In this document: piece by piece, positions 11,036-63,649 of the stretch
How the letters are laid out: each line of letters begins with the position of its first letter
How positions within the stretch are numbered: the stretch's first letter is position 1
Position numbers and translations under genes: made by a program
Notes under the pieces: model-generated
The model's database searches: none
What the model saw: only the letters and a program-made list of their open reading frames with translations
Told to the model about the DNA's origin: nothing
Assembly: GCA_963714975.1 (NCBI GenBank)
Contig: CAVQQD010000002.1
Coordinates: 256,001-320,000, forward strand
Reading direction: 5' to 3'
DNA: 64,000 bases
From: an uncultured Gammaproteobacteria bacterium
GTDB taxonomy: Bacteria > Pseudomonadota > Gammaproteobacteria > JAURND01

Positions 11036-11080
11036 TTGACAATTTCAAACGTAACCATTCAGCATCTTTTTGCGTAAAAA

Positions 11081-11200
11081 TCCTTCTCCCCTTGTGGGAG
11101 AAGGTGCCCGAAAGGGCGGACAAGGGGTAAGCTTGAAACCAGCAAGGAGCATTTTATTAGCTAAATGCTCATTGCTGCTTACCCCTCACCCGCGCGCCTT
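11081..11200 (+). repeat. REP-doublet (REPIN/MITE-like) element, truncated copy
   Basis: Near-identical to 25568-25720 and to the reverse complement of 39575-39728, including the internal spacer. Confidence 0.85.
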
Positions 11201-11223: not shown

Positions 11224-11358
11224 TCAGCAGCTACCAACCAATAAAATAGTGATAGTCATACCAAAGTTTTTTATTTTTGTCAGGGTATCAACGAGGGGAG
11301 GGCGATGCCCTGGTTGACGAAAGCATTTAAAGGGGATGTTAATGTTATTATCATTCAT
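11224..11358 (-). CDS. Small 44-aa ORF downstream of cassette copy 1 (possibly a remnant)
   Basis: SD aggag then MNDNNINIPFKCFRQPGHRPPLVDTLTKIKNFGMTITILLVGSC*. Confidence 0.3.
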   Translation of the reverse strand: MNDNNINIPFKCFRQPGHRPPLVDTLTKIKNFGMTITILLVGSC

Positions 11359-11404
11359 GAATATGCTCCTGGATTTATAGTTGAAAAAACAACGAATCAA
11401 GGAA

Positions 11405-11495
11405 GCGGCAGCAGAGGATTTTTATAGGCGAGGGCGGAGGCGGTAGCTTAAGAGAAGGAGTGCCTCACGCCCTACCTATTTCCTCTGCTACCAGC
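11405..11495 (-). other. Long 3' hairpin of cassette copy 1
   Basis: On the minus strand GGTAGCAGAGGA..ATAGGTAGGGCG.GAGGC pairs with GCCTCCGCCCT.GCCTAT..TCCTCTGCTGCC; equivalent to 63056-63162. Confidence 0.7.
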
Positions 11496-11715
11496 CCACC
11501 TCCTCTTGTCCTGCATACCAGCCACTAAAAAACCCACAGCAAATCTCAACCTGATGCCAGCAACACCGCTGTGACATTCGAGGAAAATCTTTCGGCAAGG
11601 ATTTGTTGCTCCAGGCGCAAAATATCCGCCCAACGCAATGTAGGTGAAAAAAAATGAGTGGCATACAGAAAAGAGTTTTACGCAAACGCGCAATCGAGTA
11701 AGCTGTATTTGACAC
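11488..11715 (-). CDS. Small Cys/aromatic-rich protein, paralog of 62842-63066 (candidate type I toxin or leader peptide)
   Basis: GTG start after SD gaggt; 26 of 74 positions identical to the 62842 ORF without gaps; both stop at TAG followed by CAGAGGA. Confidence 0.7.
   Translation of the reverse strand: MSNTAYSIARLRKTLFCMPLIFFHLHCVGRIFCAWSNKSLPKDFPRMSQRCCWHQVEICCGFFSGWYAGQEEVGW
11676..11704 (+). promoter_or_regulatory. Antisense sigma70-like promoter inside the small ORF
   Basis: TTTTAC-N17-TAAGCT; conserved in copy 2 as TTCTAC-N17-TAAGCT. Confidence 0.6.
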
Positions 11716-11806
11716 GGCGGACCTCTTGGTTAGGTTCGTTGCTGTAAGTGCCTCAAGAATGGTTTCGACATTCTTTTGGCGCGGCCGTGGGCATTGCCCA
11801 CGGTTA
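11711..11806 (+). ncRNA. Predicted cis-antisense RNA, copy 1
   Basis: Follows the antisense promoter; hairpins GTGCC..AAGAATG-gtttcga-CATTCTT..GGCGC and GGCCGTGGGC-att-GCCCACGGTT use G-U pairs on this strand; ends approximate. Confidence 0.55.
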
Positions 11807-11812
11807 CCGAGT

Positions 11813-11840
11813 ATTATTCATGGTTTTTTGCGAAAAGCAA
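11813..11840 (-). promoter_or_regulatory. Sense promoter of cassette copy 1
   Basis: TTGCTT-N16-AATAAT(act), matching TTGCAT-N17-AATAAT(act) at 62710. Confidence 0.55.
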
Positions 11841-11850
11841 ACTTTTTATT

Positions 11851-11970
11851 AAGGCAGGTGATAAGGTGTTCGTGGACTATGCTGGGCCAGGAGTTGAATC
11901 ATTGACCCACAAGCGGGTGAAGTGCGTAAGGCGCAGATTTTTGTTGGTGTGCTGGGCGCATCCAATTATA
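11851..11970 (+). pseudogene. IS21-family istA transposase fragment
   Basis: Frameshifted KAGDKVFVDYAG...IDPQAGEVRKAQIFVGVLGASNY. Confidence 0.75.
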
Positions 11971-12130
11971 AATATACTCTTCATTATTGCAGGATCGTGA
12001 ACACTTTGAGACAATTTTCTGCTCTCAAAAAACATGCCTGATTAGCACTGTTCACGTTCGCAATAATACACAACTATTAAATATTCAATATATCGGTGTC
12101 AATTGTTTAATCAAAAAGAGGATAATAATA

Positions 12131-16392: not shown

Positions 16393-16409
16393 AAAATCCT
16401 TTTTTCCCT

Positions 16410-16581
16410 TAAGGTGTCATCCCGAGTAAGGTGTCATCCCGAGTAAGGTGTCATCCCGAACGAAGTGAGGGATCTCATGAATGTGGCAAAGAATATGGAG
16501 ATCCCTCGCTGCGCTCGGGATGACACCTTACTCGGGATGACACCTTACTCGGGATGACACCTTACTCGGGATGACACCTTA
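16410..16581. repeat. Inverted REP pair with 17-bp tandem expansions in both arms
   Basis: (TAAGGTGTCATCCCGAG)x2 plus core on the left arm; core plus (CTCGGGATGACACCTTA)x3 on the right arm. Confidence 0.92.
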
Positions 16582-16608
16582 GGGGAGAGGGGATATTTGC
16601 GGAGAAGC

Positions 16609-25528: not shown

Positions 25529-25567
25529 GTCACCCCTCTACATACGATATGCTGCAGGTCATAAAAA

Positions 25568-25720
25568 TCCTTCTCCCCTGGTGGGAGAAGGTGCCCGAAA
25601 GGGCGGATGAGGGATAAACTTCAAACCAGCAATGAGCATTTGATTAGCTAAATGCTAACTGCTGCTTACCCCTCACCCGCGCGCCTTAGGCACGGCGGCC
25701 TCTCCCCCAAGAGGAGAGGC
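25568..25720 (+). repeat. REP-doublet (REPIN/MITE-like) element, full copy
   Basis: TCCTTCTCCCCTGGTGGGAGAAGG...CCTCTCCCCCAAGAGGAGAGGC; matches the 11081 and 39575 copies. Confidence 0.88.
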
Positions 25721-29667: not shown

Positions 29668-29717
29668 CTCCCACAAGGGGAGAAGGAAAATCTACCCACT
29701 CGATTCTACATAGAACC
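29668..29717 (+). repeat. 50-bp exact duplicate of 59-108 (REP half plus possible IS end)
   Basis: CTCCCACAAGGGGAGAAGGAAAATCTACCCACTCGATTCTACATAGAACC occurs at both sites. Confidence 0.85.
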
Positions 29718-37290: not shown

Positions 37291-39728
<2,438 letters not shown>

Positions 39729-39790
39729 TTTTTACACACAAAGGATGGTGAATGATTACAAAATTTTAAACAATCAACGAATGAACAACC

Positions 39791-62644: not shown

Positions 62645-62709
62645 TTTTATCCCTTACAGAGGAATCAATTCTTATTGAAACTTGTCGTAAGCTTTTTTTA
62701 AGAAAATGT

Positions 62710-62738
62710 TTGCATTTAACCAAAAGCCGTTGAATAAT
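62710..62738 (+). promoter_or_regulatory. Sense promoter of cassette copy 2
   Basis: TTGCAT-N17-AATAAT. Confidence 0.6.
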
Positions 62739-62741
62739 ACT

Positions 62742-62846
62742 GAAACCTCAGATGCTCACGCACCTGAGGCCGCGCCCTACAGATGGTGACACATCTGCGA
62801 GGGTACTTCCATAACCCCAACCTTTCTGGAGGTCGGCAGCCATGAC
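62742..62846 (-). ncRNA. Predicted cis-antisense RNA, copy 2
   Basis: On the minus strand: GGCCTCAGGTGC-GTGA-GCATCTGAGGTTT (G-U pairs, GNRA loop) and CCCT.GCAGATG-tgtcac-CATCTGTAGGG; ends approximate. Confidence 0.58.
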
Positions 62847-63066
62847 CTATTTAGCTTACTTCATTACGCGTTGGCGTAGAACTCTTTTCTGTAGGTTTGT
62901 CACATTTTTTTACCTGCTGTTATTCAGGCGGCTTTGCTGCGCTTGGATAAACAGGCTTTTACCTTATATACACTCCTCTCGTGTCCGCGCTGTGTTATGG
63001 AACTGGATAGGAGCTTGTGGCAGGTTTTTTGGTGACATTCATTCATTACAAGAGGGTAGGCAGTAG
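62842..63066 (+). CDS. Small Cys/aromatic-rich protein, paralog of 11488-11715
   Basis: SD GGAGGT at 62828-62833; ungapped alignment to copy 1. Confidence 0.72.
   Translation: MTYLAYFITRWRRTLFCRFVTFFYLLLFRRLCCAWINRLLPYIHSSRVRAVLWNWIGACGRFFGDIHSLQEGRQ
62853..62881 (-). promoter_or_regulatory. Antisense sigma70-like promoter inside the small ORF
   Basis: TTCTAC-N17-TAAGCT. Confidence 0.6.
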
Positions 63067-63162
63067 CAGAGGAGTGAGGTATGGCGAAGGGTCCCTGTAT
63101 CCTGCAGGGATGACGAGAAATTGTCTCTTCGCCATTACCTACTAAACCTCTGCACTGCCTAC
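63056..63162 (+). other. Long 3' hairpin of cassette copy 2
   Basis: GTAGGCAGT.GCAGAGG..AGGTATGGCGAAG pairs with CTTCGCCA.TACCT..CCTCTGC.ACTGCCTAC, followed by ATTTTT. Confidence 0.72.
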
Positions 63163-63226
63163 ATTTTTCATGTTGATTACCCAACACTTTCAGAAAATCA
63201 AATTCAATCATTTCTCGGAGAATTTT

Positions 63227-63649
63227 ATGACACAACAATCACAAACTATTCCTGTCGCACGTATTTTAGTAACAGAAGACAACCGAATGGCCGCAAAAGC
63301 CGCACAAGGTTTGTTCAAAGATAAAAATTGCCACGTCGTTGTAGAAGGTTGCGCTAATGCAACACTCGAACATTTACAGGATCACTTCGACCTGCTGGTG
63401 GTCGACCTAGGTCTTCCGGATTTTAGTGGCCTTATTCTTGCGGAGAAAATTCGCAACTCTGGTGCTCCACTTGCAACTGCCCCGATTGTGATTTTAACCG
63501 CCCATGGCGATGAAACGCATAAAACCCAAGCTAAAAAATTGGGATTAAATGGATTTTTGCAGAAACCCTTAACCTCTGCATTATGCGATAGATTGTTGTG
63601 GCGTTTTGTGCGTATGCCTGTCGATAAAAATTATTTTCTTGAGAATTAG
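63227..63649 (+). CDS. Single-domain response regulator
   Basis: ILVTEDN, VVDLGLPD, ILTAH, KPL; SD ggag before ATG 63227. Confidence 0.88.
   Translation: MTQQSQTIPVARILVTEDNRMAAKAAQGLFKDKNCHVVVEGCANATLEHLQDHFDLLVVDLGLPDFSGLILAEKIRNSGAPLATAPIVILTAHGDETHKTQAKKLGLNGFLQKPLTSALCDRLLWRFVRMPVDKNYFLEN

Follow-up and report, generated by a model that had tools for sequence, protein, structure and literature searches.

Why would some 390 nucleotides (nt) of intergenic DNA in front of regulator genes be more conserved than the genes themselves? The question is raised by a 64,000-nt stretch from an uncultured gammaproteobacterium (contig CAVQQD010000002.1, positions 256,001 to 320,000; the whole stretch is called the window here, and unprefixed positions refer to it), in which an intergenic element of about 390 nt lies at 11468-11854 (copy 1). 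The initial annotation had described at this place a sense and an antisense promoter facing each other across complementary sequence blocks, and had taken the arrangement for the second instance of one found elsewhere in the window. Our comparison suggests that the element is a conserved leader module that would be transcribed in both directions, and we consider it fairly probable that it gives rise to a small cis-antisense RNA through which the leaders of paralogous signalling cassettes are controlled. Such control would account for the conservation of the roughly 390 nt preceding the regulator genes.

The element belongs to a large family in its own genome (G000; 2.56 Mb in 3 contigs). A BLAST search with 11440-11860 returned 19 matches and an iterated nhmmer search 34, of which 16 cover the whole profile of about 390 nt, among them copy 1 (C2:267468-267854, on the + strand in the orientation of the small RNA). 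One further copy is interrupted by an insertion of about 2.5 kb (C2:390818-391068 / 393608-393748), and diverged copies exist beyond these. What had been regarded as a second instance is instead one of at least 17 copies. The other copy in the window, copy 2, is a full-length nhmmer match at 62698-63087 on the - strand, and a repeat finder pairs 11604-11718 with 62839-62953 on the opposite strand (115 nt, 70%); copy 1 shares 91% identity with another copy, at C2:904437-904823. On the 3' side, homology stops sharply at a point common to all copies (window position 11854), while the 5' end is graded by subfamily. Between the A and A2 subfamilies the element is 0.83-0.86 identical and the regulator gene 0.66-0.68 at the nucleotide level (protein 0.48-0.50), and between A and B the values are 0.70-0.74 and 0.60-0.65. 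Judged by these alignments, the element is more conserved than the regulator genes that it precedes.

The motif TTTTAC-N17-TAAGCT, on which the promoter of the initial annotation was based, is present at 11676-11704 (+) as the sole match in the window, with a chance expectation of 0.06. Given that 6 of 100 shuffled windows contained at least one match, the motif alone is not significant. It is conservation that lifts the signal far above chance: a covariance model (R1) built from the last 160 nt or so of the element finds 25 places in the genome (copy 1 at 11698-11848), and compensatory, two-sided changes occur in 28 of the 31 pairs in an alignment of 33 places to R1. The -10 box and the spacing are, as claimed, the same in copy 2 (TTCTAC-N17-TAAGCT, 62881-62853, -). 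Across 30 loci, the + strand motif reads TTTACG or TTTGCA, 16 nt and TAAGCT, the form in which copy 1 was scored here being TTTACG-16-TAAGCT. The -10 box follows the pattern T-A-A-x-x-T in 29 of these loci, as TAAGCT, as TAAAAT in five diverged copies or as TAAACT in three copies from other genera.

The facing, sense promoter-like motif of copy 1 lies at 11813-11840 (-) and consists of a -35 box TTGCTT (11840-11835), a 16-nt spacer and a -10 box AATAAT (11818-11813), matching 8 of 12 consensus positions. Over the 30 loci it reads TTGCAT or TTGCTT with a spacer of mostly 17-18 nt and a score of 7-11 of 12; the -10 box is AATAAT in 23 loci and TATAAT in the related genome G008. A promoter scan lists the sense promoter for copy 2 (62709-62738, +, 9 of 12), not for copy 1. 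Both motifs hold their positions across the 30 loci while their letters vary, and the transcripts predicted from the motif pairs would overlap by 66-126 nt, which at the level of motifs places the antisense promoter opposite the leader of its presumed target. If transcription begins 7 nt downstream of each -10 box, the starts in copy 1 would be at about 11711 (+) and about 11806 (-). These are exactly the starts predicted in the initial annotation, and their agreement with the conserved motifs lends comparative support to the pair of facing promoters proposed there.

Downstream of the + strand motif, the conserved feature is an RNA structure. The small RNA predicted for copy 1 would extend over about 110 nt from 11711 to 11820 (+), and that of copy 2 from about 62846 to 62735 (-). 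The fold of 11711-11822 (+) has an energy of -49.2 kcal/mol and contains three stem-loops. The first, P1/P2 (11712-11745), carries a hypervariable loop and had been missed by the initial annotation. The second, P3/P4 (11748-11782), corresponds to the quoted blocks GTGCC..AAGAATG / CATTCTT..GGCGC, and the third, P5 (11783-11805), to GGCCGTGGGC / GCCCACGGTT; a U-rich tail follows P5, which is a possible terminator. Both quoted hairpins are thus real in this fold, and the stem and loop sequences differ from those of copy 2 as had been noted, with an identity of 0.50 in the overlap region. Helices 1 to 4 are paired in 90.3%, 97.4%, 95.5% and 97.2% of cases, with compensatory changes in 3 of 3, 4 of 5, 4 of 5 and 7 of 7 pairs. 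P5 varies in length and is missing in some copies from other genera; read on the + strand, its loop belongs to the GNRA type in 12 of the 17 strong copies (GCAA in 8, GTGA in 3, ACAA in 1). A single-stranded UGGAAGU between the stem-loops is conserved.

In the 33-place alignment, 91.9% of the cells are paired, compared with 76.0 ± 0.8% after shuffling (none of 500 shuffles reached the observed value), and the covariation score is 0.359 against 0.142; controls in which the partners of the helices were slid pair at 22-46%. The wobble pairs point to the strand. There are 90 G-U and 24 A-C cells when the + strand is read, and 72 and 11 within P1-P4. This confirms the G-U pairs that had been ascribed to the antisense strand, which is the + strand, and together with the covariation it supports a discrete, structured antisense RNA. 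The + RNA also folds better than the sense RNA, with z-scores of -4.9 and -4.7 against -2.95 and -2.5.

Upstream of the + strand motif the signature changes sides. A domain of about 180 nt at 11491-11687 (-), detected by a second model (R2; match C2:267491-267687), forms a closed, multi-helix structure on the sense strand with 39 pairs, of which 16 show compensatory changes; 92.9% of its cells are paired compared with 84.7% after shuffling, slid controls reach 35-53%, and G-U outnumber A-C cells by 112 to 13 on the sense strand. A short sense hairpin of 4-6 bp is placed within the spacer of the + promoter (11678-11693, -, in copy 1; 62864-62879, +, in copy 2), occupies codons 8-13 of the sense-strand open frame in copy 1 and is followed by a U-rich tract that reaches to about 11665, an attenuator-like arrangement flagged as terminator-like by a scan in both window copies. 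This hairpin covaries as well (83.9% paired versus 74.4% shuffled; score 0.387 versus 0.242, 0 of 500), with 17 wobble cells on the sense strand. The wobble pairs thus lie on the + strand downstream of the + promoter and on the sense strand upstream of it, and this flip is the best evidence presented here that both strands would be transcribed.

A different interpretation would dispense with the antisense RNA and regard the 390 nt as one long structured cis-regulatory leader, which may sense a ligand or a protein and in which the sense-strand hairpin with its U-tract yields the + promoter as a by-product. The covarying hairpin and the 180-nt domain of the sense strand are what such a leader should contain, the + promoter matches the consensus weakly, and the strongest conserved block spans both the U-tract and the + strand -35 box. 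We nevertheless consider a purely sense-strand element unlikely, because the wobble pairs in the first 100 nt of the leader would become A-C mismatches in the sense RNA, the GNRA loops read correctly on the + strand only, and the + RNA is the better folder of the two. Furthermore, the + strand -10 box retains its T-A-A-x-x-T pattern while the remaining letters change.

Several observations weigh against control by an antisense RNA. The + promoter scores merely 5-9 of 12 consensus positions, which is below the threshold of the promoter scan, and the scan lists it in neither window copy; its conservation could stem from the overlapping sense-strand hairpin and U-tract. P5 was not flagged by the terminator scan, and the 3' end given for the small RNA is thus a prediction only. 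With energies of -1.2 to -7.3 kcal/mol (-6.4 in copy 1), the sense hairpin is a weak one, and the U-tract begins several bases past its stem, which makes attenuation speculative. The pairing figures for the + strand are generous, given that the 33-place alignment was fitted to the model structure and that the copies are related, and those for the sense domain are inflated by a structure (RNAalifold) derived from the same alignment in which the pairs were counted. An anti-terminator pairing of one arm of the sense hairpin with the invariant GCGCC block, considered by eye, was rejected since the arm varies and the block does not.

If antisense control is nevertheless assumed, the layout of the overlap suggests how it could operate. 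The predicted 5' untranslated region of the sense message (11716-11806, -) is fully complementary to the small RNA, and it contains a Shine-Dalgarno box (AGAGGT, 11726-11721) that is placed, together with the start codon, in the 3' arm of a hairpin of the consensus fold that mirrors P1/P2. A sense-strand message with both of them inside the overlap is supported by the comparison of copies. From the sense promoter, on the minus strand in copy 1, a message would be transcribed that comprises about 90 nt of untranslated region, the Shine-Dalgarno box and start codon, and a frame of 57-79 codons overlying the structured RNA domain; it would then enter either a receiver-only response regulator or a synthase-like gene followed by a PAS histidine kinase and a regulator. 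The second promoter, within the first codons of the frame and in the opposite direction, would produce the RNA of about 110 nt with its three stem-loops, perfectly complementary to the entire sense untranslated region including the Shine-Dalgarno box and the start codon. We hypothesize here that this RNA pairs with the sense leader, probably first at the two variable loops, and that expression of the cassette falls as a result. Possible routes are a blocked ribosome-binding site, a duplex of the sense and the small RNA that serves as a substrate for RNase III, and a stop favoured at the short hairpin and U-tract just past the start codon; the collision of facing polymerases may contribute.

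The frame that would be translated from the sense leader has 75 codons in copy 1 (11488-11715, -, with a GTG start at 11715) and lies at 62842-63066 (+) in copy 2. Its translation is plausible and a conserved protein unlikely. A GAGGT/GGAG box precedes the ATG or GTG by 4-9 nt in 12 of 13 representatives, the thirteenth (L034) being one for which the script picked a more upstream ATG without a box. In 15 of 16 full copies the frame stays open, and its end point is the same in each of them. Among the 13 representatives, which include four other genera, its length is 57-79 codons compared with medians of 27-39 after dinucleotide shuffling; the corresponding P values are 0.006-0.18, with two below 0.05, in lineages that are not independent of each other. 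The coding signal is weak: the entropy by codon position is 0.91, 0.83 and 0.92, without periodicity, and the mean nonsynonymous difference (pN) is 0.37 against a synonymous difference (pS) of 0.47, in a set of 15 rows that has one member in the wrong frame (C2_1177040) and omits a frameshifted copy (C2_1227011). The first 17 codons or so lie over the + promoter and the hairpin; past them, the frame cannot be aligned in sequence between genera. Taken from these comparisons, the frame is probably translated, and its sequence shaped by the underlying RNA domain. As a separate observation, the frame of locus L052 in genome G008 (open reading frame, ORF, at 1283-1519, -) has an ordinary protein-like composition and the strongest open-frame signal of all (79 codons, P 0.006), and it may represent a real small protein, unlike the frames in the host genome of copy 1.

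An antisense RNA that lies across a small frame's start codon, together with the Shine-Dalgarno box and untranslated region in front of it, also brings a type I toxin-antitoxin pair to mind, in which the peptide of 57-79 residues would be the toxin and the + RNA its copy-specific antitoxin; the cross-neutralisation suggested in the initial annotation had the same flavour. That the frame is kept open fits this interpretation, as do the many paralogs with loops that are all different, which recall the Sib/Ibs family (PMC2943612). The predicted overlap of the antisense RNA with the message of the small frame is shared with type I systems, whereas a toxin-like peptide, in such systems usually a hydrophobic membrane peptide, and a self-contained two-gene locus were not found. 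Of 21 frames, 5 attain a hydropathy of 1.6 in their best 19-residue segment, without a consistent membrane helix, and cysteine, tryptophan, histidine and phenylalanine together make up 16-29% of the residues. An AlphaFold model yielded a predicted local distance difference test score (pLDDT) of 53.8 and a predicted template modelling score (pTM) of 0.21, no family was assigned in Pfam or NCBIfam, and no homologue was detected in a search of 5.8 billion proteins restricted to 40-130 residues. Besides the weak coding signal and the lack of sequence conservation outside the part overlapping the + promoter, the covarying RNA domain accounts for the body of the frame, and the module never stands alone, given that an operon for a regulator or a kinase follows it in 16 of 16 copies. 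Because the frame is not toxin-like, we regard a type I pair as quite unlikely.

In contrast to the toxin hypothesis, a further interpretation leaves the small frame aside and sees in the + RNA an independent small RNA that acts in trans or binds a protein, with an incidental overlap with the leader. The conserved single-stranded UGGAAGU and the conserved GNRA loops would suit such a function, and so would copy 1 itself, which retains an intact module despite the loss of its cargo. However, the + RNA keeps its place with respect to the Shine-Dalgarno box and start codon of the sense strand in every copy, also in other genera, and an independent RNA therefore appears rather improbable. A role as the leader of a gene on its own side is not indicated either: among the 16 copies, the neighbours in the direction of the small RNA have no relation to one another (11 are co-directional, 3 convergent and 2 not listed), which speaks against the + RNA as a leader serving some conserved gene.

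That the family is a mobile non-autonomous element, such as a miniature inverted-repeat transposable element or the end of an insertion sequence, which merely carries hairpins, is very improbable, since the many copies with their sharp common 3' end and nearby insertion-sequence remnants are outweighed by indirect evidence: the 5' boundary is a gradual one that depends on the subfamily and runs on into the regulator or cassette genes, every full copy holds a constant position relative to these genes, and copies and cargo diverge together. A group II intron domain, an insertion-sequence end and a guide RNA of the IS200/IS605 type were rejected on the grounds that Rfam gave no match and that the flanks contain no transposase, apart from two later insertions of an ORF that looks like TnpB (a label given by appearance only). 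A decoy RNA of the Rsm/Csr type was dismissed because just one GGA is conserved.

Returning to control by a cis-antisense RNA, we asked how specific each RNA might be for its own message, as the initial annotation had assumed. All P2 loops and all P4 loops are different among the 17 strong copies, and their columns have an entropy of 1.43 and 1.54 bits, compared with 0.45 in paired columns. For copy 1 against copy 2 the assumption finds support, with a full-length duplex of the copy 1 RNA and the copy 2 leader reaching 36% of the cognate energy and the reverse combination 32%. It does not extend to every copy, as groups of close paralogs reach 84-95% of the cognate energy, and copy 1 combined with the copy at C2:904437 reaches 78-83%.

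Whether the loops are under selection for insulation was addressed with eight close pairs of copies. Without the two loops, the small-RNA region shows a difference of 0.03-0.06 in five of these pairs and of 0.22-0.24 in the other three, which include L039, while the synonymous difference of the regulators is 0.06-0.39. With values of 0.19-0.46, the loop difference is about equal to the synonymous difference in seven of the eight pairs, and diversifying selection on the loops was rejected as unsupported there. The single pair in which the loops change faster than synonymous sites is L029/L030 (G000:C1:263532 and C3:293458), in which the loops differ by 0.38 against a regulator pS of 0.06, in spite of near-identical regulators (pN 0.00) and a difference of 0.03 in the small-RNA region. 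Loops that diverge at about the synonymous rate are explained by free drift as well as by selection for insulation; the loops appear free to vary, and selection for insulation is possible. A more ambitious hypothesis derived from the sequence would see in the family an array of insulated, bistable channels of cell-cell signalling, in which each module is an RNA switch with its insulation in the two hypervariable loops. Each switch, composed of the facing promoters, the antisense RNA, the leader frame and a sense domain opened by the ribosome, would gate one channel of synthase, kinase and receiver. We consider an array of this kind unlikely.

The genes that would be controlled are of one general type. 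Signalling genes are found downstream on the sense strand in all 16 full copies, and Pfam confirms their receiver and kinase domains. In ten copies a receiver-only response regulator follows, truncated in two of them (copy 1 and C3:470610), and in the other six a gene of 250-267 residues, intact in two, comes first, with a PQ-loop/PAS histidine kinase and a receiver behind it. This leading gene of the cassettes shows a weak similarity to the tRNA-dependent cyclodipeptide synthase family TIGR04539 (E 1.9e-4; 21.1 bits at a cut-off of 45). In the related genomes G004, G003 and G002, the leader precedes a DUF3050 gene (E 1.3e-80 in G004) and a PAS-type kinase, which indicates an exchange of the first gene in a cassette that otherwise retained its leader and its kinase. 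A signalling role of the cargo is presumed, the synthase-like gene scoring below the cut-off and DUF3050 being a family without known function. Copy 2 is followed by an intact receiver-only response regulator (63170-63649, +; Pfam Response_reg, E 3.4e-18). It was also observed that the cassette of synthase-like gene, kinase and receiver at G000:C2:10001-20000 (L165), as well as three paralogous loci, is preceded by this leader and faces a large gene resembling formyltransferases and nonribosomal peptide synthetases, and that the cassette at C2:1177040 is interrupted by a transposase-like ORF of 521 residues.

The general type of control is already known. In plasmid R1, with CopA/CopT, tap and repA, and in the related Inc RNAs, a stem-loop antisense RNA is transcribed from a promoter in the leader of its target. 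Like CopT with tap, the element described here has a short frame in the target leader upstream of the regulated gene, and recognition would presumably begin at the loops. Unlike that system, the module is chromosomal and present in at least 17 copies per genome, its cargo is a signalling gene instead of a replication initiator, and the sense leader contains the additional structured domain of 180 nt. The frame also differs, as it comprises 57-79 codons and ends 60-190 nt before the next gene, and both properties make direct translational coupling unlikely. By analogy with plasmid copy-number control, the element most likely works through an antisense RNA that is encoded in cis and acts on a leader.

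The replication control of pT181 and pIP501 relies on attenuation induced by an antisense RNA. There, as would be the case here, the antisense RNA pairs with a nascent leader that holds a hairpin and U-tract upstream of the regulated gene. The differences are that the hairpin of the present element has just 4-6 bp and lies inside an open frame, and that the one alternative pairing checked by eye showed no covariation.

Paralogous antisense RNAs encoded in cis are also represented by Sib/Ibs of E. coli, for which repression is reported to take place between cognate pairs only, with one exception (PMC2943612). The unique loops and the low cross-complementarity of distant copies are shared with that family; the Ibs toxins, tiny hydrophobic peptides from stand-alone loci, differ from the frame described here, which is not toxin-like and stands first in an operon for a regulator or a kinase. 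Genes for cell-cell signalling headed by facing promoters whose transcripts overlap are known from prgQ/prgX of pCF10 (PMC3181467) and scbA/scbR of Streptomyces (PMC3134472), where antisense pairing and polymerase collision are proposed to result in switch-like behaviour. In the present element the facing promoter-like motifs are found and the cargo includes a PAS histidine kinase and a receiver; the synthase is uncertain, with its score below the cut-off. In contrast to the two protein-coding operons of these systems, one partner here would be a dedicated, small structured RNA.

The family also occurs beyond its own genome. R1 matches four of the eight other genomes of the taxonomic family (five of nine when the host of copy 1 is counted), and these nine genomes represent the whole order as sampled; none of 52 genomes from the remainder of the class, each standing for one family, was matched. 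R2 finds 17 copies and one partial copy in the own genome and a single weak match in G006 (E 3.2e-7), and its search of G002, G003, G004 and G008 returned nothing. Rfam 15 yielded no match in the window at gathering scores and merely chance-level matches in 11400-11900 (E 0.36 or worse), so that this RNA family, as defined by our models, is absent from the Rfam catalogue. Two pattern scans of metagenome contigs retrieved no stretch, and a loose pattern scan of genome contigs retrieved mostly chance hits; three of its 80 loci match R1, all on one record labelled as a gammaproteobacterial metagenome-assembled genome. A literature search, which was aimed at analogues and not at this lineage, found no paper on the element.

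If the proposed control is correct, the element would represent an RNA family missing from the catalogue, in which an antisense small RNA and a structured sense leader act as partners and govern a large set of paralogous two-component cassettes in a barely sampled, uncultured order of Gammaproteobacteria. Seventeen related pairs of sense and antisense RNAs in one cell would then provide a natural series in which to study how cross-talk between paralogs is avoided or exploited under cis-antisense control. Furthermore, strand-specific wobble pairs would be a means to expose bidirectional transcription from sequence alone.

Copy 1 differs from copy 2 in being an orphan, with an intact module and a regulator gene that is cut off after codon 41. 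The remnant (11224-11358, -) retains codons 1-41 of about 165 and is identical in 34 of 41 positions to residues 1-41 of an intact paralog of 165 residues (BLASTP), and no Pfam receiver domain was detected in it. The ORF runs into a palindromic repeat of 135 nt at 11066-11200. This repeat belongs to an internally palindromic repeat of about 130 nt that is present three times in the window (11066-11200, 25562-25690 and 39609-39743; 91% alike, one inverted). At the other side, just outside the element, a degenerate, frameshifted remnant at 11862-11975 (+) resembles istA of IS21 in a weak tblastn match. The fragment of IS21 that the initial annotation placed directly next to the sense promoter is thus confirmed in part: in the ORF at 11922-12041, a stretch of 18 residues is 78-83% identical to plasmid istA at E 0.1-0.4, NCBIfam and Pfam returned nothing for this ORF, and the genome contains no other copy of the remnant. 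As it lies beyond the sharp common end of the element, we regard it as an incidental neighbour.

Insertions also occur at other copies. An ORF of about 400 residues stands directly behind two copies of the leader (the flank of C3:470610-471001, and L047) and at one of these it cuts the regulator short. By appearance, the N-terminus of this ORF resembles TnpB of the IS200/IS605 type. Elsewhere in the window, a 17-bp unit at 16405-16598 is repeated three to four times in tandem and faces an inverted array, and the two form a long perfect palindrome with arms that are 96-100% complementary. An exact direct repeat of 50 nt was found at 59-108 and 29668-29717, 29.6 kb apart, and it opens with the palindromic motif CTCCC..GGGGAG that is common to other repeats of the window.

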